A DNA stretch of 48,157 nucleotides from Candidatus Nanohalobium sp. (GCA_042217555.1 JBDGSL010000054.1:1-48157); one strand, 5' to 3'. Counted from the stretch's first letter, positions 1-21,200 are shown. Notes: a model not told the origin generated them from the letters alone. Numbers and translations: made by a program.

Positions 1-2
1 AT

Positions 3-38
3 TACGTCTGTGGTAGAGGAGGTCTTATTTCCCACAAT
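3..38 (+). mobile_element. C-terminal end of an intein in Cdc6
   Basis: In-frame YVCGRGGLISHN followed by Thr (39-41): block F/G pattern with HN|T junction, at the place where the Walker A GK|T is expected. Confidence 0.8.
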
Positions 39-1040
39 ACTTTGATTGTTAAGCATGTTGCTGAGGAGTTGAAGACTGTTGCGCAGGATAAGGAGATTGA
101 TCTTAATGTTCTGTATATTAACTGTAAGATGAAGAAGGTTGCGGATACTGAGTACCGTCTTCTGGCTAAGCTGGCGAGACAGCTAGGTGAGGATGTTCCT
201 TCGACAGGTCTGCCTACTGATGAGATTTATAACCGGTTTTTTGAGGCTTTGAAGGAGCAGAAAGGTGTTGTTATTATTGCGCTGGATGAGATCGATGCGT
301 TGGTTAAGAAGGTGGGGGATGAGTTTCTTTACAATCTTACGAGGATTAATGATGATCTGGATGAGACCAAGGTTTCTATTCTGGGCATCTCTAACGACTT
401 GAATTTCACTGAGTATATGGATTCTCGTGTTAAGTCTTCTCTGTCGGAGGAGGAGATTATTTTTCCTCCGTATAATGCTATTGAGTTGAGGGAGATACTT
501 CAGGATCGTACTGAGAAGGCTTTTGTTGATGATGCGTTGAAGGATGGTGTTATCTCGAAGTGTTCTGCTCTTGCTGCTCAGGAGCATGGTGATGCTCGTC
601 GGGCCCTGGATCTTTTGAGGGTTGCTGGTGAGCTTGCGGAGAGAGGTGAGAGTGATCAGGTGGTTAAGGATCATGTTGATAATGCGCAGGACAAGATTGA
701 GAGGGATAGAGTGGTTGAGACTGTTAGAAGCCAGCCTAAGCATTCGAAGCTTGTCTTGTATACTATACTGGAGATGACGGAGGATGAGGACAAGATCGCG
801 ACCGGTGATGTCTACAGCGAGTACAAGGAGCTGTGTGACGAGGTTGATGTCTCAGAGCTGACTCAGAGACGTGTTTCCGGCCTTATCTCGGAGCTTGATA
901 TGCTTGGTGTGATAAATGCCAAGGTTATATCCAAGGGCCGTTACGGGAGGACGCGTCAGATAAGTGTTGATCTGTCTGAAAATATACGTGAACAGCTTAA
1001 GGATATGGTAGAGGACAAGTTCTACCTGGAAGATGAGTAA
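3..1040 (+). CDS. cdc6: Orc1/Cdc6 replication initiator, 5'-truncated by window edge; first codons are the C-terminal end of an intein
   Basis: Walker B IIALDEID, sensor-1 GISND, HGDARRALDLLR, C-terminal wHTH ending ISKGRYGRTR. Frame is open from position 3 (YVCGRGGLISHN|TLIVKHV). Confidence 0.95.
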   Translation, partial: YVCGRGGLISHNTLIVKHVAEELKTVAQDKEIDLNVLYINCKMKKVADTEYRLLAKLARQLGEDVPSTGLPTDEIYNRFFEALKEQKGVVIIALDEIDALVKKVGDEFLYNLTRINDDLDETKVSILGISNDLNFTEYMDSRVKSSLSEEEIIFPPYNAIELREILQDRTEKAFVDDALKDGVISKCSALAAQEHGDARRALDLLRVAGELAERGESDQVVKDHVDNAQDKIERDRVVETVRSQPKHSKLVLYTILEMTEDEDKIATGDVYSEYKELCDEVDVSELTQRRVSGLISELDMLGVINAKVISKGRYGRTRQISVDLSENIREQLKDMVEDKFYLEDE

Positions 1041-1082
1041 AAACTTTTTGAATTTTGTTGCCTTGGGAGGGGATTTCGGTCT

Positions 1083-2624: not shown

Positions 2625-2691
2625 TGGGCGTAGTTTCGCGACGAGAAATAGAGCGTTCAGAGGAACGCACTCCGCAAATTGGTGATATTTC

Positions 2692-5600
2692 ATGGATGTA
2701 GACGACTACTTCAACCGTTTGAGAGAAGAGACTGATAAGGCGTACGATCTTGCTGAGAAGGCGCGTGACCAGTCAAAGGACCCTGAGCAGCGTATCGACA
2801 TACCTATTGCCACAGATCTCCCTGAGAAGGCATCCAGCCTGGTCATAGCCGCTATGTTTGAGGAGCTTGAGGATCAAGGTGTTGCGGAGAGGATAAGGGA
2901 TCTTGAAGACGAGTACGGTAAAAACGATGAGAGAGTGTCGTTCCAGATCGCCAGGGAGATTGCAGAGGGAGAGTTCTACGAGTTTGAGTCAAAGGAGAGG
3001 GCCTGCGACGCAGGGATAAGGGTAGGAGTCTCCTACATGACGGGAGGAATCACTACAGCGCCTCTTGAAGGTATAGGCGACATAAAGATCCGGGAAAACG
3101 ACGACGGCAGTGAGTACCTGGCTGTGTACTACTCCGGACCTATCAGATCTGCCGGAGGAACCGCTTCCGCCATGAGCGTCTTGCTTGCGGACTACGTCAG
3201 GATAGGCGTGGGTCTGGACAGGTTCAAGCCTTCAGAGACTGTCGTGAAAAGATATGCTACAGAGGTCGAGGACTACTACAACCGTGTTACAGCCAAGCAG
3301 TACAACCCTACGCGTGAAGAGACGGAGAAGATCGCGTCTAACGTTCCGGTTGAAGTTACAGGGTCTCCGACAGAGGATCTCGACGTCTCGAACTACAAGG
3401 ATCTTGACCGTATAGACACTAACAGGATCAGAGGTGGTATGTGCCTCGTATACCTCGACGGTCTCCCGTTGAAGGCTCCGAAGATAAAGAAACGTATCAA
3501 GAAATGGGGAGAGGAGTTCGGGCTTGAGCACTGGGAGTGGGTGAAGGATTATCTGGAGCTTCAGAAAGAGATCCACTCCTCAGAGGATGAAGAAGATGAA
3601 GATGCTGATGAGGACTCGAAGAAAGAAGAATACACTCCAAGCGACAAGTACCTTGGCTCTCTCACTGCAGGAAGACCTGTGTTTGCTCACCCTGGCAGGA
3701 AAGGAGGTTTCCGTCTTCGCTACGGTCATTCCAGGACCAACGGTCTGGCCGCAACAAGCTTTCATCCGGCGACTATGGAGATAACAGAGCGTTTCCTGGC
3801 CATAGGAACCCAGATGAAGATGGAGTACCCTGGAAAGGCGACTGTAGGTACGCCATGCGACGCAGTACATCCACCGGTTGTCAGGCTGGATAACGGCGAT
3901 GTTGTGAAGGTTGAGACACGTGAAAAGGCCCGTGAACTGGAGAAAAAGATAGAAAAAATTCTTTTCCTCGGCGATGTGCTTGTTCCGTACGGTGAGTTTG
4001 TGGAGAACGGCAAGAAGCTGCTGCCATCTCCCTACGTCGAGGAGTGGTGGGAGAAAGAGCTGGAGAAGGCTCTGGAGGAGCAGGACGTCAAGCTTGGCAA
4101 GAGCTTTGACGGCAGAACGCCGACACCCGAGGAAGCGTTCAAGATAAGCGATGTACTAGGCATTCCGCTGCATCCGCGCTGGCAGTACCACTGGAACGAG
4201 ACCTCTCCAGACAGGTTCAGATCTCTGTTTGAGGAGATAAATGAAGGAAATATCGAAACTCAGAAAGCAAAGAACTGCCTTGAAGACATACTTGTAGAGC
4301 ACAGAACAGATGAGGACGAGATCAGGGTTCGGGAGGACGACCTGAAAGTTCTGAAGAAGCTTCTCAGAGTTGATGAAGATTACTCAGATGATCTGGAAGG
4401 CCTTGAGAATGGTGAAGATGTACAGGAGTTTGTCTCGGAGATTTCGGGCTACGAGCACAGGGACCAGGCACCTCACTACATCGGAGGAAGGATGGGCCGA
4501 CCGGAAAAGGCGGAGAAAAGGACCTTGAACGGTGATCCACAGCTGCTGTTCCCCTGTGGAAAAGAGGAAGGTGGCAGGATGCGCAACATCTCCGCCTCAT
4601 ACACTCAGACGATGCACGGCGAGCAGGGCATCGTCAAGGAATCCATAATCCATAATAAGTGCCCTGAGTGCGGCGAGATGACATACTACTCTTTCTGCCG
4701 TGACTGTGGTGTTCCTGCAGAGGAGAGATGGTTCTGCACCGACTGCGGCAAGGAGTTCGAGGAGGAACAGGAGTCCTGCTCCAGCTGCGGTAACGAAAGA
4801 TTCAACAGGTACAGAAACACAGAGATAGACGTCCAGGAACTGATGGATAACTCACTGGAGAACCTGGACATGAACCAGCCTCCTGAGCTCCTGAAATCCT
4901 TCAGAGGAATGACATCGAAGCACAAGCATGTGGAACCGATTGAGAAAGGTCTTCTCAGGGAGAAATACGGCCTATACGTCAACAAGGATGCAACCGTAAG
5001 ATACGACGCCTCTGACCTTCCGATGACCCATTTCAAGCCGAAGGAGATCAATGTATCCGTGGAGAAGCTGCGTGAGATCGGGTACGATCAGGATTACAGG
5101 GGAGAACCTCTGCAAAGACGTGATCAGATCGTTGAGCTGAAGCCCCAGGATATAATCATTCCTGACAGCGACAAGACCCTTTCCGCAGCGAACTACATGA
5201 TGAAGGTATGCGACTTTGTTGACGATCTGCTGGAGCAGTTCTACGACCTTCCTCCGTTCTACGAGATGGAAGATAAGGAGGATCTTGTGGGAGAACTCGT
5301 AATCGGACTGGCCCCACACACATCCGGAGGAACCGTTGGACGTATAATAGGGTTCACAGACGCCAAAGGCATCTACGCTCACCCTTACTGGCACGCAGGG
5401 AAGAGAAGGAACTGTTTCCATCCAGAAACAGAAATTGAATTTAGAGATGAGAAAGGTTGGCAGAAAAAGAGGATTGACGAGTTTGTTGAGGAAAGAATTT
5501 CTAACCCAAGGGAAGACGATTTCGGAAATAAGATAGAGGAAGATGTAGAAAATGTCACGGTAAAATCCGTTAATAAAGAAGGTGAAAAAGTAGAGAAAGA

Positions 5601-8151
5601 AGTGCAAGCAGTTTCTAAACATCAGAACACGGAATTACTGAAGATAACTACTGAGACAGGCCATTCGATAAAGGTAACTCCTGATCACAAAATGCAGGTG
5701 TTCAATAAGGATAAGGTAGAGAAGATTCGGGCTAAGAACTTGAATGAAGGTGACGCAATACCGGTCGTGGAAGAAGAGGTTAGGAAAGCTGAAGTAGACT
5801 CTATAGAACCTGTAAATGAAGAAATAGAAAATACGTACTGCCTGACTGTAAAAGACACTCATTCGGTAATAGTTAACGGTATTGGAACAGGACAATGTGA
5901 TGGAGACGAAGACGCCATATTGATGATGATGGACGGCCTTCTGAACTTCTCTAGACAGTTCTTGCCGGACATGACAGGAGCGCGTAGTATTACCAAAGAT
6001 ACGCGGCTAGTGGTCAGGAGAAATGGCGAGGTCAGAGCGCCGAGAGCTGATGAACTTATTGACGAAATTCTTGATAATGAAGGGTTTGAAACCAGGGAAG
6101 ACGGCTTTGAGGTCAACAGAGATTTCAGTGATGACATCGAGGCCGTCTCGTTTGACAGAGATTCCGGTGAGGTCGAGTTCAGGGATGTTTCTGCGTTGAT
6201 CAGGCATGAGAACGATAAAGAGGTCTTTGAGGTCAATACCTCGCGTGGAAAGATTTCCGTGACTGGTGATCACAGTGTTTTCGTCACGGAGGGAGATGAG
6301 ATTGAGGCCAGGCCTGTCAGGGAGCTCGAGGAGGGAGACTGTATAGTAGTTCCTTCTAACCCTGAGCTGGAGGCTGAAGGTCTTGAAGATGAGATTGATT
6401 TATTTGAGCTGCTGCCGGACGATGAATGCTATGTGAAGGTTCCTGAGGATGAACTCGAGGAACTGGGTCCGGAGATCAAGGCCGAAGCAGGAGAAGAGGT
6501 AAAGGATGAGTATGGAGAGCACAATATATACAGGTACAGGACAGGTAGAAGGGATGCTCCCCTGGAGTTCTACAGGGATGTCGGTGTAGTACCTTCCTGC
6601 AAGGTCAGGCTGAGAGCCAATACCGATCCTGTGTACAGGTTCATCGAGAACTCGGCAGAGCTTTACCGCCTGCTGGGCTACCTGCTTTCCGAAGGCGACC
6701 TGGACAGGGGAAGGATTACAAATACTGGCGAAGACGTGATTGAAGACGTCGAGCACTGCATACGTGAGCTTACCGGTGTAGATCCAAGGACGCACGTGGA
6801 CAACAGAGACGGAAAAAAGAAATGCTACTGGGTCGATACTCCTGCGGTTCTGATGCGGGCTCTGGAAGAGTTAGGCCTTGAAAGGGAGAAGTTCGACGAA
6901 AAAAGCATACCTTCGTTTGTGTTCGGAGCCGAAGAAGAGAAAGTGGAGGAGTTCATACAGGCCTATCGTGCGGGAGACGGCTCGATCTACGGGGAGAAAG
7001 GTTTCTCCAAGCTCTACACGAAGAGCGGCGAGATGGCCACACAGCTCTCACTGCTTGTCAGGAAACTGGGCTTCAAGTCTTCGACCAGACAGGCGGGCGA
7101 GACGTGGGAGGTCCTTTATTCCGAATGGACTGACAAGGATCCTTACTGGCCTCTCTGGGACGTTCTTGATGAAGGCAGAGAAGTGCTCAGAGAAGAAGGT
7201 GCTGATTATGAGGAGATAAAGCAGTCTTTCTCCAATGACAGGAAGAACGACAGGATGAAAACTGCATCCAAACAGAGAGTAGAGGAACTTTACGGTAAAG
7301 GCCTTGATTCGCTGGAAAAGCCAGTCGAGGAGGATGTATCTGTTGAGAGAGTTAAGGAAGTGGAGAGGGGGGATTACGGCGATGACTATGTTTATGATCT
7401 GGAGGTTCCAGGGAACCAGAACTTCCTGTGTGGTCCACATCCTGTATTCGCACACAACACCATGGATGCGCCGTTAATCCTCTCTACGGTTTTGAATCCT
7501 GATGAGGTCGACGATGAGGCGTGGGCGATTGAGACTGTTGATGAGTATCCGCTAGGTTTCTACGAGGAGACACAGGAGTACAAGGAGCCGTGGGATTTGA
7601 ATGTAGATATTGAGATCGGTGAGGATATTGTGCATAGTGATGAGCCTTTTAGGCACGGCTTCACGCATGATTCCTCGGATGTGGAGAACGGCCCGGTCCA
7701 GTCCGAGTACGTTACACTGGATGAGATGAGTGAGAAGACTTCTGCTCAGCTGGGTCTTGGTGAGAAGACGCTTGCGGCTGATGAGGATGCTACTGCCGAG
7801 CTTTTGCTTCAGAAGCATTTTTTGCCGGATATCCGAGGTAATCTGCGTTCTTTTTCTTCTCAGGAGATGCGTTGCGTTGACTGCAACGAGAAGTTCAGGC
7901 GTGTTCCTTTGACCAACCAGACGATTGCGCCTTCGGGTAAGACTACTGCTCAGTGCCCTGAGTGCGGTGGCAAGGTTCTGTTGACGATTTCGGAGGGAAC
8001 TATCAAGAAGTACATGCAGCCTTCGAAGGATATTATTGATGAGTATGAGATCAGTCCGTATATGCGGCAGCAGATTATTATTCTGAATAAGACGTTGCAG
8101 AGCCTGTTTGGTAAGGATCAGCGTCAGAGCGGTTTGAAGCAGTTTACATAG
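2692..8151 (+). CDS. polC: DNA polymerase D large subunit DP2 with two inteins
   Basis: GPIRSAGGT, GGFRLRYG, GGRMGRPEKA, Zn-finger Cys clusters, catalytic KRRN..CDGDED, MDAPL, C-terminal PIP-like QSGLKQF. Confidence 0.97.
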   Translation: MDVDDYFNRLREETDKAYDLAEKARDQSKDPEQRIDIPIATDLPEKASSLVIAAMFEELEDQGVAERIRDLEDEYGKNDERVSFQIAREIAEGEFYEFESKERACDAGIRVGVSYMTGGITTAPLEGIGDIKIRENDDGSEYLAVYYSGPIRSAGGTASAMSVLLADYVRIGVGLDRFKPSETVVKRYATEVEDYYNRVTAKQYNPTREETEKIASNVPVEVTGSPTEDLDVSNYKDLDRIDTNRIRGGMCLVYLDGLPLKAPKIKKRIKKWGEEFGLEHWEWVKDYLELQKEIHSSEDEEDEDADEDSKKEEYTPSDKYLGSLTAGRPVFAHPGRKGGFRLRYGHSRTNGLAATSFHPATMEITERFLAIGTQMKMEYPGKATVGTPCDAVHPPVVRLDNGDVVKVETREKARELEKKIEKILFLGDVLVPYGEFVENGKKLLPSPYVEEWWEKELEKALEEQDVKLGKSFDGRTPTPEEAFKISDVLGIPLHPRWQYHWNETSPDRFRSLFEEINEGNIETQKAKNCLEDILVEHRTDEDEIRVREDDLKVLKKLLRVDEDYSDDLEGLENGEDVQEFVSEISGYEHRDQAPHYIGGRMGRPEKAEKRTLNGDPQLLFPCGKEEGGRMRNISASYTQTMHGEQGIVKESIIHNKCPECGEMTYYSFCRDCGVPAEERWFCTDCGKEFEEEQESCSSCGNERFNRYRNTEIDVQELMDNSLENLDMNQPPELLKSFRGMTSKHKHVEPIEKGLLREKYGLYVNKDATVRYDASDLPMTHFKPKEINVSVEKLREIGYDQDYRGEPLQRRDQIVELKPQDIIIPDSDKTLSAANYMMKVCDFVDDLLEQFYDLPPFYEMEDKEDLVGELVIGLAPHTSGGTVGRIIGFTDAKGIYAHPYWHAGKRRNCFHPETEIEFRDEKGWQKKRIDEFVEERISNPREDDFGNKIEEDVENVTVKSVNKEGEKVEKEVQAVSKHQNTELLKITTETGHSIKVTPDHKMQVFNKDKVEKIRAKNLNEGDAIPVVEEEVRKAEVDSIEPVNEEIENTYCLTVKDTHSVIVNGIGTGQCDGDEDAILMMMDGLLNFSRQFLPDMTGARSITKDTRLVVRRNGEVRAPRADELIDEILDNEGFETREDGFEVNRDFSDDIEAVSFDRDSGEVEFRDVSALIRHENDKEVFEVNTSRGKISVTGDHSVFVTEGDEIEARPVRELEEGDCIVVPSNPELEAEGLEDEIDLFELLPDDECYVKVPEDELEELGPEIKAEAGEEVKDEYGEHNIYRYRTGRRDAPLEFYRDVGVVPSCKVRLRANTDPVYRFIENSAELYRLLGYLLSEGDLDRGRITNTGEDVIEDVEHCIRELTGVDPRTHVDNRDGKKKCYWVDTPAVLMRALEELGLEREKFDEKSIPSFVFGAEEEKVEEFIQAYRAGDGSIYGEKGFSKLYTKSGEMATQLSLLVRKLGFKSSTRQAGETWEVLYSEWTDKDPYWPLWDVLDEGREVLREEGADYEEIKQSFSNDRKNDRMKTASKQRVEELYGKGLDSLEKPVEEDVSVERVKEVERGDYGDDYVYDLEVPGNQNFLCGPHPVFAHNTMDAPLILSTVLNPDEVDDEAWAIETVDEYPLGFYEETQEYKEPWDLNVDIEIGEDIVHSDEPFRHGFTHDSSDVENGPVQSEYVTLDEMSEKTSAQLGLGEKTLAADEDATAELLLQKHFLPDIRGNLRSFSSQEMRCVDCNEKFRRVPLTNQTIAPSGKTTAQCPECGGKVLLTISEGTIKKYMQPSKDIIDEYEISPYMRQQIIILNKTLQSLFGKDQRQSGLKQFT
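5413..5895 (+). mobile_element. Mini-intein (161 aa, Cys1...Gln) in DP2
   Basis: GKRRN|CFHPETEI...VTPDHK...YCLTV...NGIGTGQ|CDGDED. No endonuclease domain; more AT-rich than the flanks. Confidence 0.93.
5986..7458 (+). mobile_element. Full-length intein (491 aa, Ser1...His-Asn) with LAGLIDADG homing endonuclease in DP2
   Basis: PDMTGAR|SITKDT...SVTGDHSVF...LLGYLLSEGD...FIQAYRAGDGS...YVYDLEV..NFL..FAHN|TMDAPL. Confidence 0.93.
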
Positions 8152-8214
8152 AGAATTTTTTGATGGAGGTGAGAGGGCTAGGTTTTTAGGTTTTCGAGTG
8201 TATGAGTATTTATT

Positions 8215-8745
8215 ATGGCAGAACAAGTTCCGATTAAGGAGGTTATGACTGATGGTGTTATCGCGATTGAAAAGGATAAGAGTATTGTTGAAGCCTCCCA
8301 GCTTCTTGAAGATGAGGAGATAAGAGGCCTGATAGTTGTTGACGGCGGTGAGGCAGTGGGTGTTATCGTCTGCAGGGATATAGCCTACCAGGTTGTGGCT
8401 GAAGGTAAGGATCCTGCTGACACCTCTGTTGAAGAGGTTATGAGCAGTGATCTGATTGTTGCAGAGGAAGATGAAGTCCTCAACGATATAGCGATGGCGA
8501 TGGTCAGAAACGATGTCTCACGTGTGCCTGTAGTCAGGGAGGATATGCTGGTAGGTATTGTCACACAGAGTGATATCCTGAGGGCGTGGCCTGGCTTCGC
8601 AGAGATCATGGAGGAAGAGGAAGAGCTTGAGGCAGAAGCATCTCCACGGCCTGAGACACGTTCCGGTTACTGTGAATCCTGTGAGAACTACTCCGAAGAC
8701 CTGCAGAAGGTTGAAGGGATGTGGGTCTGTCCGGAGTGTAGGTAA
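8215..8745 (+). CDS. CBS-pair protein with C-terminal zinc ribbon
   Basis: Two CBS domains (VMT..., RVPVV..LVGIVTQSDIL) and CESC...CPEC. Confidence 0.88.
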   Translation: MAEQVPIKEVMTDGVIAIEKDKSIVEASQLLEDEEIRGLIVVDGGEAVGVIVCRDIAYQVVAEGKDPADTSVEEVMSSDLIVAEEDEVLNDIAMAMVRNDVSRVPVVREDMLVGIVTQSDILRAWPGFAEIMEEEEELEAEASPRPETRSGYCESCENYSEDLQKVEGMWVCPECR

Positions 8746-8830
8746 GAAACCGGGTTTTTTCTTCCTTCTTTCTTTTTTCTACGATACTTTTTTACCTAGG
8801 TCTCTGGTTAATTGTTTTTTGTGTATCGGG

Positions 8831-9286
8831 ATGAAGATTGTTGAGGATGTTGTGAGACGCCGGCAGACTTTGAAGGTTGAGAGCCCTGAGACTGCGTATT
8901 CTGAGTTGAGAGATCTTCTTAACCACAGGGTTTCGCTTAACCATGTCCATGAGGAGAAGTACTACCATGATGTGGATGAAGGCGTGGTCAGGGCTAAGAT
9001 AGAGGCTGATGTAGGTTTCGACCGTTTCACTGTGGGTAAACATGAGATATTTGTGACTATTGACAGGGAGAGCCGGAAGCTTGATATACAGATAAAGGGG
9101 AAGCTGCAGACGTCTTATCCAACGGAGAAGCCATGGCAGGGCAATCTCTGGTATTACGCTTATCGGTCTCTTTTCGACAAGTTTCTTTACGGCAGTGTAA
9201 GAGAAGGCTATGAGCATGCTGTTGAGGACAAGGTTGATGAGATACTTGAGCGCGTGAGAGAGACACTGGAGGTTGATAACAGGTGA
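8831..9286 (+). CDS. Hypothetical protein, paralog 1 of a tandem trio
   Basis: Acidic ORF, ATG at 8831 after a T-rich tract; C-terminal aromatic helix similar to the next two ORFs. Confidence 0.75.
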   Translation: MKIVEDVVRRRQTLKVESPETAYSELRDLLNHRVSLNHVHEEKYYHDVDEGVVRAKIEADVGFDRFTVGKHEIFVTIDRESRKLDIQIKGKLQTSYPTEKPWQGNLWYYAYRSLFDKFLYGSVREGYEHAVEDKVDEILERVRETLEVDNR

Positions 9287-9928
9287 ATGCATTGGGAGGT
9301 GTTAAAGGTGGTTAAGTTCACGGAAGATGTTTTCCACAAACAGGACCACTACTTTGTCAGGGAGGATCCTGCAAGGATCTACAGGGGTTTGAAGGATTTA
9401 CTGGTGGAGGAGTTCGGTATTGACCGTATAGAGGAGGCCAAGAACGAGTTCTCTGTTTCAAGTCCGAAGGACAAGATAAGGATGCATGCTTTCAAGGAGA
9501 AAAGCCCTCACACAGTGATACATTACAACCTGCAGTTCCGTGTTAAAAGCCCTAAAAGAATTTACAAGATGGAGCGTTCTGAAGACATACTTAAGGCACG
9601 GGTGAAGACTTCAGCCGAGGTAATCACGCGTTATCCCAGCTATGAGGATATTTCCTGGCTTCCAGATCCTCCCAGGGAGGTGCCGGGCCGTAACGTTGGA
9701 AAGTCCGGTTTGAAGGCGGAAGAGGTCTCCCGTTTCCAGAGGTCTAAGCTTTACAAGGTACTGGTCGGTGTATGGTACAACAAGTTCTACAGCAAAGAGA
9801 TAGAAAGGTACGAGGAGGAGGCAGAGGAAACCCTTCTGCATCTTCACGATCTTATGAGGGAGAAGTTTGGAGTGCAAAAAACCATTGGTAGAAGCGATGC
9901 GTCGCATTACAGGCCCCCGTGGAAGTGA
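9287..9928 (+). CDS. Hypothetical protein, paralog 2 (start may be GTG 9308)
   Basis: Operonic ORF; GGAGGTG SD upstream of 9308. Confidence 0.75.
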   Translation: MHWEVLKVVKFTEDVFHKQDHYFVREDPARIYRGLKDLLVEEFGIDRIEEAKNEFSVSSPKDKIRMHAFKEKSPHTVIHYNLQFRVKSPKRIYKMERSEDILKARVKTSAEVITRYPSYEDISWLPDPPREVPGRNVGKSGLKAEEVSRFQRSKLYKVLVGVWYNKFYSKEIERYEEEAEETLLHLHDLMREKFGVQKTIGRSDASHYRPPWK

Positions 9929-9934
9929 TGAAAA

Positions 9935-10624
9935 ATGTCGGAAGATAAGGACTTAAGCTGGTTGAAGAAGCATGTTATGCCGTGGCTACATACGCCAAAC
10001 AACTACAGTAATGACTATGAGAGAGAGCATTTTGAGGAAGGTGATGACATCTGGAGTGACTTCCATCTCTTCCATGAGGACTGGATAGAAGTGGTGAACA
10101 AGAAGGAGTGGTATGAGGCACCGCATGTTCCACAGATATACACGGATCACAAGAAGATAGTGAAGCAGAACATGGGTTTGAACCGGCCGTTTGAGGAGTT
10201 CTACTTCGAGAACCTTGGCAGCGGATCTTTTGCATCCAACATGTACGTGGACGGTGACGGCCTTCCCAGTGGCAATGGAGACTTCAGGATAGATATAGAG
10301 ATAGAGACACAGAGCCCTCCTTCAGGAGAGAACGACGCTGCACTGGTAGAGTACTTTGTAAGAGGGAAACTGTCCTATGACGTGCCTCAGGGCGTAACTT
10401 TTCTTCCACGTTTCCTGGCCTACCCTTTAAACAGGTTCTTCAAATGGGCATTCCTCGAGTTCCTGGCAGAGGAACAGATTGAATACGACGGTGAATACGT
10501 TAGGGAACGTGTAAACGAGTACTTCCAGTACATCAGAAAATACCACGGGGAGGAACCTTTACAGGCTAAGTCAAGACAGGCAGCGTTCAAACCATCGGTC
10601 GAAGACGGAGTCTTCTTCCAGTGA
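9935..10624 (+). CDS. Hypothetical protein, paralog 3
   Basis: Operonic acidic ORF with similar C-terminal helix. Confidence 0.75.
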   Translation: MSEDKDLSWLKKHVMPWLHTPNNYSNDYEREHFEEGDDIWSDFHLFHEDWIEVVNKKEWYEAPHVPQIYTDHKKIVKQNMGLNRPFEEFYFENLGSGSFASNMYVDGDGLPSGNGDFRIDIEIETQSPPSGENDAALVEYFVRGKLSYDVPQGVTFLPRFLAYPLNRFFKWAFLEFLAEEQIEYDGEYVRERVNEYFQYIRKYHGEEPLQAKSRQAAFKPSVEDGVFFQ

Positions 10625-10649: not shown

Positions 10650-10947
10650 TCAGACATAGACTTCGCCCGTTTCTTCAACTTTCCGGATGAACATGCTGTC
10701 CTGCTTCTCCCTGAACTCTCCCTCGGTCTTGATCAGCGGGCCATGAAGACCTCATGCTTGACGCTGACGTCAAAGGCTAAATCCTCGACTTTTTCCCGTT
10801 GCTCTTTGTCCTCCACGACGACCAGGACGTCGACGTCGCTTTCGTCATCTTCCTCGCCGCGGGGCCACGCTACCATACAGAACCAGCTTCTCCAGAGAGT
10901 TATCCATCAGTTCCTGGACGTCTATCTCTGTGTTTCGACTCTGTCAT
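10650..10947 (-). pseudogene. Minimal nucleotidyltransferase (MNT) pseudogene
   Basis: Reassembled across frameshifts: MTESKHR...LEKLVLYGSVA(R)GEEDDESDVDVLVVVED...ETGEVYV*, i.e. the GS-x-D-x-D motif. Two frameshifts and a foreign patch; no HEPN partner seen. Confidence 0.8.
10897..10936 (-). repeat. 40-nt exact inverted copy of DP2 positions 4814-4853
   Basis: GAAACACAGAGATAGACGTCCAGGAACTGATGGATAACTC on + at 4814-4853 and on - at 10936-10897. Confidence 0.9.
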
Positions 10948-12914: not shown

Positions 12915-13020
12915 CTCTCACATCAACAACCTGTAAAACAAGCACCCGCCTCTCGACCGGTTGACCAGTCACTTCTACCACTGCTTCAACCCTCTCCAAC
13001 AGGCGAAACCCACCATCTAT

Positions 13021-13165
13021 CACTCACAAAAAACAGAGAGTGTTCTATATTAACGAACAAACTACTTGTTTGGTAAAATTGAACATTCGTACTTCTTTAA
13101 AATCTTTTGATGTTACTTCCGAGTTATTTTCTTCTAGATGAGTGTTTGCCTTGAACGAACACTCT
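13021..13165. repeat. Left arm of ~145-bp imperfect inverted repeat; contains palindromic sites 1-3
   Basis: Starts CACTCACAAAAA; sites at 13037-13063, 13063-13089, 13139-13165; aligns to the reverse complement of 15059-15204. Confidence 0.8.
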
Positions 13166-13373
13166 TGTGTTGAGACCTCTGATCGCCGCCAATAGGACCG
13201 TATGGTCTAGGCTTAACCTTTCAGGACCGTCAGGTATTTCCGTCATGGTCTGATCTTTCCGAATGACTGTGTGCTGAGCTAGGGAATCTTTTCAATGAGT
13301 TTCTCTCTTCATGCCTGGAGGATCTCGCGGTTTCCCTCTGAAGCCCTCGTTTTTTTGGACGCGCCAACCACGT

Positions 13374-13400
13374 TGAGTGTTCAAACTATGTGAACACTCA
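13374..13400. promoter_or_regulatory. Perfect palindromic site TGAGTGTTC-N9-GAACACTCA
   Basis: TGAGTGTTC aaactatgt GAACACTCA. Confidence 0.75.
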
Positions 13401-13642
13401 TTTTCTGGAGGAAAATGAAGGAAAAGGCCTATAATAAAGAAGGTATGTGAGGCATGCAGCAGATAGCACCAGGAAGTTCACACGTCGAAGTTATACTTCC
13501 TTTATGATATGGCTTAATTGGATCGCGACCCCTTGAACATTCCAATAGACAGGGTTGAAAACCACATACTCCCAGAACCGCGATATATCTTCTTTATTAT
13601 GGCATTTTCCAAGATTTTGAAAATGCACACTCCAAAATTCTC

Positions 13643-13669
13643 TGAGTGTTCAAACAACTTACACACTCA
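13643..13669. promoter_or_regulatory. Palindromic site copy
   Basis: TGAGTGTTC aaacaactt ACACACTCA. Confidence 0.7.
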
Positions 13670-13738
13670 TTAACTTCTAACAGTCAACGACCGAAATAGA
13701 GACAAAAAGTTAAAAGGAGACCTGAAAAACAATAAAAT

Positions 13739-14779
13739 ATGCAGAAAAAACTAAAACAAGTCGAAAACACTACTGAAGACAGCAGCAAAGTATTAACCTC
13801 AATCTTCGTATATAGGAAAGTATTAGAAGACGCAAACCGGGCTTATCCAAAAGATTTTTGGAATAGTAATATAGAACAAAAGGCTGAAAAGCTACTGAGA
13901 GATTATGCAAGCAGGAATAACATTAATCCTGGTCAGATAGCTTACAGAGATATACCAGATCTTGTAAAGAAGGCAAAACTCCAGAAACCGGTAAATAAAG
14001 CATACTTAGGAAACCCTTATCTACTGATCTTAGACTCCTTCGAACAAGTCACTCCAGAAGATCTACGATGGAACATACATCCCAACCCTGACCCAAACGA
14101 GATAGAAGCGCTAAGAAACCAATACTGCTGCATGTGGAAGGCAATATCTAACTATTACGACACTAAAAATAGGGAGCTAAAGAAGATAGCAGGCAAAGAA
14201 AACACGAAGATAGAAAAATCAGTTATAGACGCTCCCGTACTAGAAACACTTCTGTTCTGGCTTGAAATAAAGAGAATAAAGCAAGGGAAAAGCACCTACG
14301 AAAAACTAATAGACAAAATGGCAGACATAGGCTGGCAAAAGGAAAGAACAGACAAATACCTCAACAGATACGATATCAAAAGACAAATTGGAAGATTCAA
14401 AACAGCAAAGAAAACGCAACGACCGCTGAAACAACACAACGGCAAACTATATCCTACAGAACAACTAGTAGCAAACAAAATAAGAAAAGAAAAACTACAG
14501 AAGATCAAAGGATACGGTGCAGACTTCCTAAACCAAGAAACAAACACAATAATAGAAGTGAAAAAGAAACTATCCACAGTAAATATAACAAACGCAGCAA
14601 TACAACTAAACTACGCAGAAGATCATCTAGAAGGAAACTACAACAAGGCCATATACACGGAGACTCTCGACTTCCCAGGAAACCAATATAGCAGCTACAA
14701 AAAATACATCAAACACTATAATATCGAAATTTACGAGTATAACGACTCTAGAGAGGAGTTTGAGCTTGTTAAGTCTTAG
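13739..14779 (+). CDS. Basic protein with putative DUF4046-like N-terminus and C-terminal PD-(D/E)xK nuclease-like domain
   Basis: E..VA...GADF(x8)IIEVKK...AAIQLNY motif; YPKDFWN...GNPY N-terminal pattern; Lys/Asn-rich and AT-rich. Confidence 0.65.
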   Translation: MQKKLKQVENTTEDSSKVLTSIFVYRKVLEDANRAYPKDFWNSNIEQKAEKLLRDYASRNNINPGQIAYRDIPDLVKKAKLQKPVNKAYLGNPYLLILDSFEQVTPEDLRWNIHPNPDPNEIEALRNQYCCMWKAISNYYDTKNRELKKIAGKENTKIEKSVIDAPVLETLLFWLEIKRIKQGKSTYEKLIDKMADIGWQKERTDKYLNRYDIKRQIGRFKTAKKTQRPLKQHNGKLYPTEQLVANKIRKEKLQKIKGYGADFLNQETNTIIEVKKKLSTVNITNAAIQLNYAEDHLEGNYNKAIYTETLDFPGNQYSSYKKYIKHYNIEIYEYNDSREEFELVKS

Positions 14780-14803
14780 TTGTTCGTAGGTGTTGAACAC
14801 TCA
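14777..14803. promoter_or_regulatory. Palindromic site copy spanning two convergent stop codons
   Basis: TAGTTGTTC gtaggtgtt GAACACTCA; begins with the TAG of the + gene and ends with the TCA of the - gene. Confidence 0.65.
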
Positions 14804-15082
14804 TTCTTTATTCATCTTTCCGTCTGTTCTCTCATTTAGCACTCTGAGTATGATGTCTCGGTTGTTTTCGGTGTAGAGGATGTTGGCGATGCCTCTGTCG
14901 GATTCTGTGACTGAGATGCCCAGGCCCATCTGATCGAATGTTTCCTTTAACTTGGTGTAGAGGCAGCTGTCGCCGTGTATTATGAACCGCTCGCCGTCGT
15001 CCTCGATTTTCGTTATTCTCACATGGTTTTCTTGATGTCGGTAATTAATCAAACTTGCAGGTTGTTCGCTAAGTATGAACAC
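14801..15082 (-). CDS. Hypothetical protein (true start may be internal)
   Basis: 93-aa ORF with protein-like composition, inside the inverted-arm element. Confidence 0.5.
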   Translation of the reverse strand: MFILSEQPASLINYRHQENHVRITKIEDDGERFIIHGDSCLYTKLKETFDQMGLGISVTESDRGIANILYTENNRDIILRVLNERTDGKMNKE

Positions 15083-15204
15083 ACATTAAGCAGTGTTTTT
15101 TCTTTTAAGTAAAAACAAAAGGTTTGTAAAAGGTATGAGTGTTCGCTGTTTTTCAACACTCTGTTGTTTGTGTTTTTTGAACAGTCCTGGTGTTTTTGTG
15201 AGTG
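15059..15204. repeat. Right arm of imperfect inverted repeat; contains palindromic sites 7-9
   Basis: Sites at 15059-15085, 15136-15162, 15161-15187; ends TTTTTGTGAGTG (15193-15204). Confidence 0.8.
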
Positions 15205-15259
15205 TCAGGTTTCCTTTCTGTCTCTATATGGTTGTGGTAGCTGGTGAGGGGAAGGGTGT

Positions 15260-15535
15260 TCAGTCGAGTTGTCGGAGCTGGTGTATTAGGGTGCTCAGTG
15301 TTTCTGCTGTTTTCTTTCCCTGTTCTGTGAGTTCTACCTGTTTTCTACGTCCTTTTCTGTGTGATTGGGCCAGGTTGTGGTCCTCGAGTCTGTTGATTGT
15401 CCTGGCAGTGTGTGAGTACGTTGAGTCCACGTCCTGTGCTATCTGTGAGGGGTAGTTGTCCCTGGACGGGTTGTTGAGGTGTATAAGTATCTTGGCTGGT
15501 TTGGTGTGGAGAAAAAGTTCCTCTGTATCTGTCAA
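15260..15535 (-). CDS. MarR-like winged-helix DNA-binding protein
   Basis: LFLHTKPAKIL...YPSQIAQDVDSTYSHTARTINRLE...KGRRKQVELTEQG. Confidence 0.85.
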   Translation of the reverse strand: MTDTEELFLHTKPAKILIHLNNPSRDNYPSQIAQDVDSTYSHTARTINRLEDHNLAQSHRKGRRKQVELTEQGKKTAETLSTLIHQLRQLD

Positions 15536-15676
15536 GTATTGAAGCCCCTGATGTATGTTTGTGTCTGCTGCTTCTTATTTCTGACGGTGTTTTGAACTGG
15601 TTTTACGGTTGTTTTGATTCGGTGAATCCTTCGAGTTTAAAACCATTCTGGTGGAGTATTTTTGTGTGATCTAAGA

Positions 15677-15874
15677 ATGGAATTCTCTATCTCAAAGATG
15701 AAGGATTTGGTCAAGAGTCAAGGTGGTAAAAGGGTTTCAGAGAACAGTGCAGAGGAACTTGCTGATGTACTTGAGACGTTTGCTGGTGATGTCGCTGAAG
15801 AGGCTATCGCCGTTGCTGAGGAAGATGGCCGGAAGACTGTAAGGGCGGAAGATGTTCGGGAGGCCCTTCAGTAA
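15677..15874 (+). CDS. Archaeal histone (acidic variant)
   Basis: Histone fold with RVS...A.EL...GRKTVRAEDV. Confidence 0.88.
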   Translation: MEFSISKMKDLVKSQGGKRVSENSAEELADVLETFAGDVAEEAIAVAEEDGRKTVRAEDVREALQ

Positions 15875-15963
15875 AATTTTTTCTTTACAATTTCCCTTTC
15901 TGTATTTTTCTGTAGTGTGTTTTTTCCATCAGGGATTTAATGATTACATCCGGTTCGTTTTGT

Positions 15964-16959
15964 ATGGAAGTTGAGGATGTTATCGAGACGATTGTGGATG
16001 AGTCAGAGCTTGATGAGGATGAAGTAAAGGATGAAATTGATGAAAAAATGGAAGAGTTCTCCGGTCTTGTAAGTGAGGAGGGTGCGGCTCACCTGGTTGC
16101 CAAGGAGTACGGTGTTCAGGTGGCTGAAGAGGGAGCGGAGGATCTGAAGATAGATAATATTGTTCCTGATATGCGGAAGGTTCATCTTACGGCCCGTGTT
16201 GTGGGTGTCTCTGACCTGAACACGTTTGAGAGGGATGAGGATGAAGAGGATGGAAAGGTTCAGAACCTGGTGCTTGGTGATGATACCGGTACGATAAGAG
16301 TGACTCTGTGGGATGAGCAGACTGAGATAGCTGAAAAAATAGAAGAAGGTGACCCGATTGAAATAGCAGGCGCTTACAGCGTTGAGGACAACCAGGGAGA
16401 TGCAGAGCTTAGACTAGGTGACGAGGCCCAGGTTAAGATGGCGGAGGAAGATGACGTACCTGAGGTTGAAGCACAGACCGGTACGGAGGAAGTTCCTATC
16501 AGGGAGATAACGACTGAAGGCAACAGTTACAGGGTCAGGGGCATGCTGATGAAGGTGTATACTTCCAACCCGTTCTACCGTGTTCACCCTGAGACAGGAG
16601 ATACTGTAAGAGAAGACGAAGATGGCAACTATGTAACGGATGATGGGGAAGAAGTGGATGAGCCGGAAGGAAGACTTGCAGTCTCCGGGGTTATGGATGA
16701 CGGAACCGAGACGATGAGAGTTGTCTTCTTCGGCGACCAGGCCCGAGAAGTCCTGGAAGTAAGCGAGGAAACCGAGAAAGAGATGGATAACGAAAGAGTA
16801 GAGGAAGCCGCAGAAGAAGCTGCAGGAAAACAGCTTATACTGGAGGGCAGAACACGTTACAACGACTACTTCGACCGCATAGAACTTCTTGCCAACCAGG
16901 TCGAAGAAGTTGAGACAACGGAAGAAATCGAGAGAATGCTTGAAGTAATGGAAGCTTAA
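15964..16959 (+). CDS. rpa: Replication protein A (OB-fold ssDNA-binding)
   Basis: GLVSEEGAAHLVA N-terminal domain, GDDTGTIRVTLW and DDGTETMRVVFFG OB folds. Confidence 0.9.
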   Translation: MEVEDVIETIVDESELDEDEVKDEIDEKMEEFSGLVSEEGAAHLVAKEYGVQVAEEGAEDLKIDNIVPDMRKVHLTARVVGVSDLNTFERDEDEEDGKVQNLVLGDDTGTIRVTLWDEQTEIAEKIEEGDPIEIAGAYSVEDNQGDAELRLGDEAQVKMAEEDDVPEVEAQTGTEEVPIREITTEGNSYRVRGMLMKVYTSNPFYRVHPETGDTVREDEDGNYVTDDGEEVDEPEGRLAVSGVMDDGTETMRVVFFGDQAREVLEVSEETEKEMDNERVEEAAEEAAGKQLILEGRTRYNDYFDRIELLANQVEEVETTEEIERMLEVMEA

Positions 16960-16974
16960 AGGTGAATGCTAATT

Positions 16975-17925
16975 ATGTCAGAAGAACAAGACGTTGAACT
17001 GGAAGACATTAAAGGAGTAGGCGGTAAAACAGCGGAAAAGCTTAGAGATGCAGGTTACGAAGAGCTGATGTCTATAGCGACGATGAGTTCCGGTGAACTA
17101 GGCGAGGTAGCTGATCTCGGTGACAAGAAGGCTCAAAGCATTATCACGGAGGCAAGGAAGCATCTGGACCTCGGCTTCGAATCAGGTAGGGACAAGTATG
17201 AAAAGAGAGAGAAGATGCAGAGGATTACGACAAGCAGTGATAATGTTGACGATGTTCTTGGGGGCGGAGTGGAGACGCAGTGCATCACTGAGTTCTATGG
17301 AGAATATGGCTCCGCAAAGACACAGATGAGTCACCAGCTCTCATGCAACGTCCAGCTACCGGAAGAGGAAGGAGGCCTGGGAAGAGAGGCTGTCTACCTC
17401 GACACGGAAGACACCTTCACGCCTACAAGGATCGAACAGATGGCAGAAGCCAATGATCAGGATCCGGAAGAAGTACTTGAAGGAATCCATGTCGCCCGGG
17501 CTTTCAACTCAGACCACCAGATGCTGCTTGCAGACGAGGCACAGGAGATCTGTCAGAACAACGACGTAGGCCTTATCATCGTTGACTCACTGACGGCACA
17601 GTTCAGGTCAGACTACGTAGGACGTGGAGAACTGGCTAAGAGACAGCAGAAACTGAACAAGCACATGACAACACTGCTCAGACTTGCCAACAGTCACAAC
17701 GCTGCTGTAGTAGTTACGAACCAGGTCATGTCAAACCCTGACCAGATGTTCGGAGATCCGACAAAAGCCATCGGAGGCCACATAGTCGCACACAACTCCG
17801 CTGTCAGAGTCTACCTCAGAAAAAGCAAGAAGGACAAGAGGATTGCAAGGCTCGTCGACAGCCCTTACATGCCGGAAGGAGAAGCAGTATTCAAAGTCAA
17901 AGATGAAGGAATAATCGACGGCTAG
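16975..17925 (+). CDS. radA: DNA repair/recombination protein RadA
   Basis: N-terminal HhH, GEYGSAKT Walker A variant, IIVDSL, GRGELAKRQQ, RIARLVDSP. Confidence 0.97.
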   Translation: MSEEQDVELEDIKGVGGKTAEKLRDAGYEELMSIATMSSGELGEVADLGDKKAQSIITEARKHLDLGFESGRDKYEKREKMQRITTSSDNVDDVLGGGVETQCITEFYGEYGSAKTQMSHQLSCNVQLPEEEGGLGREAVYLDTEDTFTPTRIEQMAEANDQDPEEVLEGIHVARAFNSDHQMLLADEAQEICQNNDVGLIIVDSLTAQFRSDYVGRGELAKRQQKLNKHMTTLLRLANSHNAAVVVTNQVMSNPDQMFGDPTKAIGGHIVAHNSAVRVYLRKSKKDKRIARLVDSPYMPEGEAVFKVKDEGIIDG

Positions 17926-18407: not shown

Positions 18408-18770
18408 TTATTTGAAGTCCTCTACTTCTGTGATTTCTTTTATTTCTTGGTCTGTTGTCAGTATTTTGTTTTCATTGCTGAAAGCTACCTGCAAGGCGTC
18501 GAATGTGTGTAGTCCGTGTTCTTTCATGTAGTGCGCAGCCTCCAGGTATTTGTTCATGTCAGCTTTGACCTCTATCATCATTTCGAGCGTTCCGAGTTTC
18601 TCCTTGGGATCCAGATTTTCTCTTTCACACAGTATCAGAAGTTCGTTTATCGTGACATGGCTCGTATATATTTCATCTTTCCTCTCTTCATAGACTTCTC
18701 TAGAGGACTGTTTCAGCCAGTCTGAGTCTTTTAACAATGCAAATATAAAGTCTGTGTCTGCGTAAATCAT
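18408..18770 (-). CDS. vapC: VapC PIN-domain toxin
   Basis: IYADTD, SHVTINEL, LHTFDALQVA, ILTTD acidic PIN motifs. Confidence 0.9.
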   Translation of the reverse strand: MIYADTDFIFALLKDSDWLKQSSREVYEERKDEIYTSHVTINELLILCERENLDPKEKLGTLEMMIEVKADMNKYLEAAHYMKEHGLHTFDALQVAFSNENKILTTDQEIKEITEVEDFK

Positions 18771-19000
18771 TCTTCTAGTACCTGCTTTTCTGCATCTTCC
18801 CTGACATCTTTCTTTAACTCTTCGACACTCTTGTCCTCTAGCTTCTCCTTCTCCTGGAACTTTTCCACAGGATTTTCCGGTAATGGCATAAACACAAGTC
18901 CATCCTTAGTATCTATGATTCTAAAATCATCTCCGTACTGCTCACGAAGGCTTTTTGGAATGTATACTCTGCCCTGATCATCAACACTAGCAACAGCCAT
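18767..19000 (-). CDS. vapB: AbrB/MazE-type antitoxin (VapB)
   Basis: VDDQGRVYIPKSLRE; 4-nt overlap with the PIN gene. Confidence 0.88.
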   Translation of the reverse strand: MAVASVDDQGRVYIPKSLREQYGDDFRIIDTKDGLVFMPLPENPVEKFQEKEKLEDKSVEELKKDVREDAEKQVLEE

Positions 19001-19229
19001 AATACCACTAACCAAATTTTATTTCCAATAACTTAAACATATTTCCATTGCCTCCAGGTTCTAGAGGGACAACAAATTTTTACTACAGATAGGACGACCT
19101 GAGGTTCTTTCCCCTAACTTTTCTCTTCAAATCATCTAATATGAAGTAAGCAATGGATGAAGCAGGAAAATAGGTTTTACCTTAGCTAGTCTAGAGAGCA
19201 GGTTGTTTAAGATTGGGAAAGAGGAGTTT

Positions 19230-20486: not shown

Positions 20487-21060
20487 GTGGAGTCTCCCGG
20501 GGTAAGAGGGAGGGAAAGAGCTGTAAAACTGCTGGAGGATGTCGACCTGGGAGATAGAACACAGCATCGTCCCAGTGAACTTTCTGGAGGGCAGAGACAG
20601 AGAGTATCGATAGCCCGGGCACTGGCAAACGACCCTGAAATCGTCCTGGCAGATGAACTTACAGGAAACCTGGATACAGACACAGGAGCCAGGATAATGC
20701 AGCTTCTGACAGAGCTGAACGAGGAGGGAAAAACAATAGTTATGGTTACACACGATCCGAAAGACGCAGAGTACGCAGATAGACAGGAGTTTGTCACTGT
20801 TCTCGGAATGCCTACTGATGCACGAGAGCTTATCAAGGAGAGCTGGGCTCTGGAACTGGATGAAGGCAGAGGTATAGAGCCAACGGACAAGTCCAACATA
20901 GTCATCGGCAGCGCCGTCGCCAGGAACCACTTCGGAGAGGAGATAGACCTCAGATCAAAACTGAAGGTAAATAGCGAAGACTTCCGCGTAGTCGGAACCT
21001 ACAAACCCACAGGCGATCCAAGCATAGACCAGGCTGTCGTCATGCCATACCCTCGGCCCA
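20487..21060 (+). pseudogene. Deleted ABC transporter operon: LolD/MacB-type ATPase C-half fused to a permease fragment
   Basis: [20 protein letters not shown] and MVTHD present but no Walker A; then a MacB-type core fragment (IVIGS...FRVVG...DQAVVMP). Confidence 0.75.
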
Positions 21061-21200
21061 GAACTGATCCTGGGGTCAATCATATTCTCCTTTACAGTCG
21101 GAGTACTTTCAGGAGTTTTACCGGCAAGAAGAGCAGCGAAAATGCCGCCGGCGGAAGCACTGAGATATGAGTGAAGAAAGAAAGGCAAGAAGAAAAGGTC

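Follow-up and report, generated by a model that had tools for sequence, protein, structure and literature searches.

A single-copy hub of palindromic sites near to, and separate from, the replication origin of nanohaloarchaeal chromosomes

Our analysis revealed a hub of palindromic sites in the chromosomes of Nanohalarchaeota that is real, phylum-wide and apparently undescribed. It is exemplified by an element at positions 13021-15204 of a 48,157-nucleotide stretch of DNA from Candidatus Nanohalobium sp. (genome G000), which was analysed at its full length and is referred to here as the window. The proteins of G000 are acidic, in keeping with a nanohaloarchaeon. The hub combines two classes of motifs, termed P and X, in a strict geometry and with mirror symmetry; it is present in a single copy, lies close to the replication origin and is independent of oriC. 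Our first reading, to which we assign a probability of roughly 40%, is that of a nucleoprotein centre that organises or segregates the chromosome, be it centromere-like, SMC-loading or arm-pairing. Taken as sets, the tested features of oriC, parABS, Xer/cer, insertion sequences and non-coding RNAs are apparently not those of the hub. Individual features are shared, namely the origin-proximal palindrome cluster of parABS type and exchanges at the core of Xer/cer type (one inversion and one swap at X).

The following features were identified in the window, with the strand given where one was assigned.

42..1040, plus strand: 3' part of cdc6 (5' part and ORB origin on the end of contig C12, probably joined through an intein gap)
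13021..13032, plus strand: left terminal motif, mirrored at 15193-15204
13037..13089: left arm tandem P pair (13037 strong, 13063 weak); the pair recurs in relatives
13090..13118: left arm AT-rich core, the segment from the pair to the single site; whole-interior inversions break here in relatives
13139..13165: left arm single P site, 76 bp past the pair
13374..13400: central P site, perfect (18/18), left core border
13434..13448, minus strand: X site a, 15-bp pseudo-palindrome AYAWACCTYCTTTRT
13491..13505, plus strand: X site b, 57 bp past a
13516..13570: conserved short motifs in the b-to-c interval; related block in other families, compared by eye
13583..13597, plus strand: X site c, 92 bp past b; break point of core inversion and cargo swap in relatives
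13643..13669: central P site, right core border
13739..14779, plus strand: 346-aa Lys-rich cargo ORF, weak DUF4046 match
14777..14803: P site at the boundary of cargo and small gene; extra copy compared with the empty G002 hub
14801..15022, minus strand: 73-aa small gene (18/41 genomes, 50-84% identity)
15059..15085: right arm single P site
15107..15135: right arm AT-rich core
15136..15187: right arm tandem P pair (15136 strong, 15161 weak)
15260..15535, minus strand: MarR/PadR-like winged-helix (wHTH) gene, candidate P binder
15662..17925, plus strand: histone, RPA and RadA block linked to the hub

A preliminary description of this DNA had reported nine copies of a 27-bp site with an invariant 9-nt spacer, distributed over mirror-image arms. 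All nine P sites were recovered where it had placed them and match the consensus, in order, at 14, 12, 16, 18, 16, 15, 14, 16 and 11 of 18 positions; the spacer is invariant in length and not in sequence. P is not equally common elsewhere: five matches of at least 15/18 were found in the G000 genome, all of them inside the element, and a position weight matrix (PWM) trained on relatives and applied to the 1.31-Mb genome ranked seven sites of the element highest (21.4-29.7 bits), followed by a match of 19.1 bits. Taken singly, the sites at 13063 and 15161 score no higher than background (10.6 and 11.9 bits), and it is only their recurrence at the same positions in relatives that lends them credibility. 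The mirror symmetry proved to be far above that of shuffled sequences, with 92 of 147 alignment columns identical between the arms and a score of 117 against 23.7 ± 8.5 (maximum 59) in 2000 shuffles; with the P sites taken out, the score was 57 against 11.0 ± 6.9 (maximum 37). The terminal motif of the right end is also retained in G002, G003 and G021. A symmetric multi-site protein-binding platform, as suggested earlier, is supported as a reading.

The flip from C/A-rich DNA on the left to G/T-rich DNA on the right that had been noted before exists locally, with a GC skew of -0.56 over 12915-13020 and of +0.24 to +0.48 over 15205-15660. It largely reflects gene direction, since much of the positive skew stems from the minus-strand wHTH gene, and the skew is already +0.21 over 1-10600; therefore there is no replichore switch at the element. 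The cdc6, PolD, histone, RPA and RadA genes are neighbours as previously listed. Among other genes of the window, the PolD large subunit (2692-8151) carries an intein and LAGLIDADG domains, 10733-10876 is a nucleotidyltransferase fragment, 18408-19015 encodes a PIN and AbrB/MazE-like toxin-antitoxin pair, and ABC and MacB-like pieces are joined at 20487-21170.

The hub is conserved across the phylum. Among 29 loci of relatives that were picked by the wHTH gene alone, 19 contained at least two P sites within 1.5 kb, and in several of the others a P cluster was located 2-14 kb away. In a wider collection, partly selected by the motif itself, 41 of 44 loci from families f1, f3, f4 and f5 contained a P cluster, the exceptions being those of G018, G023 and G025. 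An exact 13-letter gapped pattern matched in 46 of 70 genomes of the phylum, compared with one match in total for the reversed control, and in complete chromosomes this pattern gave one cluster each (G003, G004, G009, G017, G020 and G021, weaker in G013). No P cluster was detected at the loci of wHTH homologues in other DPANN archaea (52 non-nanohaloarchaeal loci; 5 genomes). Across the sampled families the hub adjoins the wHTH-histone-RPA-RadA block, and it is found 13-61 kb from cdc6 in the 16 relatives that have both on one contig. Hubs of family f1 follow a common plan of arm, P, core, P, variable DNA, small gene and arm, and the empty form in G002 comprises about 1 kb. Contigs C9, C11 and C13 of G028 carry five copies of a near-identical 22-mer resembling a P variant, which is perhaps a repeat or the end of an insertion sequence.

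This distribution bears on the possibility, raised in the preliminary description, of a mobile element (IS, MITE or Tn7-like) with multi-site ends, an explanation that would account for AT-rich cargo flanked by inverted ends in which sites are repeated. The cluster is, however, single-copy in each genome and has been kept vertically at one conserved locus throughout the families, and no empty site was seen. The earlier observation that no transposase is visible extends to every hub examined. Viral sequences yielded no small gene, and the P sites in 18 viral matches were all solitary. We regard a mobile element as largely refuted and extremely unlikely.

Two parts of the element had been overlooked so far, the small gene (14801-15022) and the core between the two central P sites (13401-13642). 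The core is a conserved block of about 200 bp that occurs once per f1 genome and holds three copies of motif X, with freely measured spacings of 55-57 and 91-92 bp; in our collection of 31 X loci the 92-bp spacing was fixed by design. The motif reads AYAW/7 bp/WTRT, and symmetric intermediates occur (AGGACCT in G011 and G052). At 17 bits, G017 and G020 contain exactly three X sites each, all in the core and none elsewhere, and G000 has five additional isolated matches outside the core. Copy c is reversed in G006, G007, G017 and G020 and symmetric in G011 and G052; copy a is reversed in G004 and G024, and all three copies are direct in G004. X does not occur outside family f1. The core that the P arms flank in families f3-f5 is a different one, bearing GTTGAC-N5-GTCAAC repeats together with a 121-aa gene that was detected in 14 of 16 non-f1 and 0 of 25 f1 genomes and is AF_0843 family-like by language-model features. 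This gene (L048:12637-13002 and orthologues) has its own 18-bp repeat array, and occurs in non-f1 hubs only. A structured non-coding RNA was also considered for the f1 core and rejected: the seemingly stable single-sequence fold (z -4.07) is the pairing of X a with X c and is not conserved, the consensus fold amounts to -4.35 kcal/mol with two-sided change in 1 of 11 pairs, and comparison of the core with Rfam gave nothing near the gathering score.

Of the genes within the hub, the 346-aa ORF is dispensable cargo; two of 40 relatives had a match, in each case at the hub, and the short G002 hub has none. The 73-aa protein has no Pfam or PDB sequence match and just 7 close clusters among 1.84 billion representatives. 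For the predicted structure of its homologue P0010 (pLDDT 82), the best fold match was the C-terminal oligomerisation domain of ArgR, tied with ACT domains (Z 8.0, rmsd 1.9 and 64 of 71 residues aligned against the ArgR domain; five ArgR entries in the top 17), and Foldseek returned nothing at E 0.001. An ArgR-C/ACT-like fold is, on this model, a lead and not an assignment to the family. The search for the small gene gave no match in G004, G005 and G024, which retain the core, and in some lineages it directly follows the wHTH gene, away from any P cluster. It is duplicated around the cargo in L328:186-1700 and interrupted by an insertion in G001 (L034:15139-16031), which marks an insertion hot spot. 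The wHTH gene has matches in 37 of 41 genomes, with generic MarR/PadR-type matches only. Its product is the obvious candidate for the P binder, yet the gene is decayed or was not found in G013, in G069 and, as far as the local copy is concerned, in G003, which has a paralogue; the P sites remain in all three. The hub-adjacent copy of G003 (L036:14346-14570) is decayed-looking and lies beside an inverted interior. A second Orc1 paralogue was also considered as binder, and none scored above the cut-off in G003 or G000.

The preliminary description had further proposed that the element might be a non-ORB replication origin. Upstream of cdc6, opposed ORB-type boxes and G-strings around an AT-rich stretch are present in 21 of 24 regions examined, with G019 and G020 being among the genomes used to define this pattern, and the skew switch maps there. 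These boxes we take to be ORBs from their consensus and position. For G000, the end of contig C12 (300-800) contains the cdc6 start, an ORB pair, G-strings and AT-rich repeats, and corresponds in synteny to the DNA left of cdc6 in G017; we infer that C12 joins the window at its start (1-42), across a gap in which cdc6 appears to carry an intein. With a model of two replichores based on four-fold sites split by gene direction, a skew switch placed at the hub costs 111 (G020) and 66 (G017) log-likelihood units, compared with 7 and 0 at cdc6, and the skew of the whole G020 and G017 chromosomes shows no reversal half-way. In partial windows of G009 and G013, oriC is preferred over the hub by 70 and 25 units, the best breaks lying elsewhere; the flat skew of G004 gives no preference (oriC -9.0, hub -11.3). 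An ORB profile found no box in the hub of G000 or in other f1 hubs, in agreement with the earlier statement that P is unlike canonical ORBs. The hub shares with archaeal oriC (ORB, G-string, DUE, cdc6) its symmetry, its AT-rich stretches and its place among replication genes. It differs in that the true oriC lies elsewhere, upstream of cdc6, that neither P nor X is an ORB and that no skew switch is seen at the hub. The hub is separate from oriC and is not the origin itself.

Some observations on origin-related sequences were made in addition. At the oriC of G007, G010, G020 and contig C79 (L178, L171, L073, the latter at 397.8 kb in G020, and C79), the outermost ORB has a P half-site directly next to it, and a full ORB with a G-string is found within the hub of G031 (L048:11916), G035 (L050:7370) and G027 (L203:2860). 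Contig C79 (260-600), with a GC content of 54%, carries a second oriC and cdc6 start and is probably contamination from another nanohaloarchaeon. The oap cluster, origin-associated in haloarchaea and recognised here by Pfam names, lies at about 643 kb in G017 (L138:3172-4607), far from the origin.

Iteron-like repeats, AT-rich cores, the ORB in three f3/f4 hubs and the non-discriminating skew of G004 could still be taken to indicate a second origin, dormant or restricted to some lineages, that has an initiator of its own. The costs of a skew switch at the hub in G020 and G017, the preference for oriC in the G009 and G013 windows, the absence of cdc6 from the immediate neighbourhood (13-61 kb away) and the lack of ORBs in f1 hubs make this very unlikely.

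An invertible element had likewise been suggested, and inversion over evolutionary time did occur, but no dedicated invertase was found. Of 28 readable f1 hubs, five (G003, G005, G021, G058 and G062) have a non-standard orientation, a count that omits G022, which was treated as a block rearrangement; the five span four clades of a 30-row RPA tree. Comparison of G058 with L294 shows an inverted core whose overlap falls on the 15-bp X a/c. Two further pairs, G021 and G058 as well as G003 and G002, differ by an inversion of the entire interior that breaks in the AT core of the arms. The near-identical strains L299 and L300 differ in their cargo; identity resumes exactly at X c, and at its other end the swap fades out inside the 3' portion of the small gene, in the manner of homologous replacement. 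No strand-changing joint was seen among contigs from three DNA runs of one study, contigs being unable to exclude such joints.

A tyrosine recombinase was not found in G017 (948 kb minus about 7 kb; best local profile E 1.1), nor was a serine recombinase detectable there, and three of four complete relatives have no resolvase. Tyrosine recombinase matches in other genomes are patchy. One weak conserved PF00589 match was rejected, as it belongs to a DEAD-box helicase. No recombinase was recognised among 181 of the 213 small and 120 of the 156 mid-size G017 proteins common to G000 and G020, the proteins left out being mostly ribosomal or already identified, and about a quarter of the screened proteins have no family match. 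G017 is a complete circular-type chromosome in which neither a tyrosine nor a serine recombinase is detectable.

These rearrangements are the main reason to consider a site-specific recombination platform of the cer/psi type. X and the similar arm cores would be the crossovers, P and the ArgR-C-like protein the synapse accessories, and an unrecognised recombinase would resolve dimers or invert or exchange the cargo. ArgR is an accessory factor at cer (PMC2409434). The ArgR-like best fold match of the small protein, the inversion breaks on X a/c and in the arm AT cores, the spread of non-standard hubs over four clades and the resumption of L299/L300 identity at X c would all be expected, and the platform accounts for the break points better than a centromere-like function. 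Dimer resolution is, moreover, unexplained because no XerA-like gene is conserved. On the other hand, no cognate recombinase was found, the symmetric X intermediates suit a point-mutating operator and not an overlap region, and X is missing outside f1 while the P arms persist. Inverted repeats can also flip without a dedicated enzyme, the L299/L300 swap fades as homologous replacement does, and a fold match of Z 8 may be just a common arrangement. ColE1 cer and pSC101 psi (ArgR/PepA) resemble the hub in having a core with accessory sites at fixed distance, an ArgR-C-like protein and breaks at core motifs; they differ in that no Xer was found here and that the hub has three core motifs and inverted arms in cis, and is chromosomal and origin-proximal. 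We hold such a platform to be a possibility of some substance, if a rather doubtful one.

Regulation or titration would be another function, with P and X as operators looping on the wHTH gene, the small gene and the histone-RPA-RadA block, or titrating a replication or cell-cycle factor away from oriC. Such titration would act in the manner of datA/DARS. Most f1 hubs have a P site ahead of the small gene, the core of the other families has TATA-like boxes together with its GTTGAC-N5-GTCAAC repeats upstream of the 121-aa gene, and both the P half-sites next to the outer ORB and the ORBs in three hubs are consistent with such a role. However, there is no P site in the promoter gap between the wHTH and histone genes, the hub persists upon loss of either neighbouring gene, and mirror symmetry over 1-2 kb as well as replichore-oriented copies within genes would not be expected of ordinary operators. 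A regulatory or titration role appears distinctly unlikely to us.

Dispersed P sites outside the hub show polarity in some lineages. In G020, 11 of 12 non-hub sites at 14 bits point toward the origin side and one points away, in genes of either direction; those within genes (9 toward, 0 away) compare with 0.75 to 1.0 under a synonymous-codon null, and other spacers give 0-5 matches. In five more complete genomes 29 sites point toward and 10 away, against 41 toward and 51 away for controls with 6- and 12-bp spacers (Fisher p = 0.002, the related genomes not being independent), and in-frame spacer controls and the synonymous-codon null weakened the polarity claim outside G020. No polarity was apparent in G017 by PWM (3 to 2) or among the dispersed sites of G000 (3 toward, 6 away; 1 to 4 at 14 bits). 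A conserved site after radA in families f3 and f4, which counts as one independent case, has oriC on one side and the hub on the other and is oriented toward the latter. KOPS, Ter and CTCF-type anchors are polar chromosome motifs. The P sites share with them the replichore orientation of dispersed copies in G020 and, more weakly, in the five other genomes; they differ in number (about 2-12 copies), in their long bipartite site, in converging on the origin side and in that polarity is undetectable in G000.

As a chromosome-organising centre, the hub might work as follows. A dimeric protein would bind the P palindromes and a second protein the three X sites, and the fixed spacings would let both arms fold together around the core, where the ArgR-C-like small protein could bridge them. 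In cells without ParB, the complex may label early-replicated DNA as the place where SMC-ScpAB is loaded or a ParA/MinD-type motor engages, and in lineages with polar dispersed P sites these may serve as anchors or stops with an orientation. Pairing of the inverted repeats would then give rise to inversions and cargo swaps as by-products. SMC and ParA/MinD-family ATPases are each encoded in five of five genomes, and ScpB adjoins SMC in G017. The ParB domain (PF02195) was found in none of the four complete relatives and has a single match on a 2.4-kb contig of G000. It is the presence of SMC, ScpB and ParA/MinD together with the absence of ParB that makes a ParB-free centromere or SMC loader our first reading. 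In bacteria, parS sites around the origin are where SMC is loaded, whereas the loader of archaeal SMC is treated as an open question (PMC11840125). The SMC proteins of G003, G013, G017 and G020 are short (about 850-935 aa), with truncated coiled coils.

Several observations weigh against a centromere-like role. The proximity to oriC may merely reflect synteny with replication genes, and the sharp break points at X fit recombination at least as well. No parA, parB or segAB gene lies beside the hub, PF13614 matches being about 70-100 kb or more away. The loss of the wHTH gene with sites kept, wHTH homologues without P clusters in other DPANN archaea, the missing small gene in G004, G005 and G024, the restriction of X to f1 and the non-polar sites of G000 and G017 also count against it.

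Compared with known segregation systems, the hub shares with parS/ParB and the SMC loading site an origin-proximal palindrome cluster in one region per chromosome and the presence of SMC-ScpAB; it differs by the lack of a ParB domain in the complete relatives, the 27-bp site with a spacer of 9 bp, the fixed spacing of two classes of motif and the mirror arms. AspA-ParB-ParA is an archaeal segregation system. With this system and with SegAB of Saccharolobus (S1/S2 sites) the hub has in common palindromic centromere-like sites beside the gene of a small DNA-binding protein; its locus lacks a Walker-type ATPase gene, its sites are not confined to promoters and its symmetric array is far larger. 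The literature searched, mostly without subscription papers and supplements, contained no description of the element or of nanohaloarchaeal centromeres. A bolder combination, which we consider unlikely, is a ParB-free and Xer-free chromosome centre whose mirror arms would load or anchor SMC and read convergent sites in a CTCF-like manner, with additional accessory-controlled recombination via a stand-alone ArgR-like oligomeriser.

The hub touches on two open questions, how DPANN archaea segregate and fold their chromosomes and how archaeal SMC is loaded without ParB. If the recombination platform were true, it would point to an unrecognised recombinase in genomes that lack XerA. Our analysis also maps the real replication origin of these archaea, and with the hub it provides a precise, phylum-wide DNA address with two motifs and candidate proteins in a group that has cultured members.
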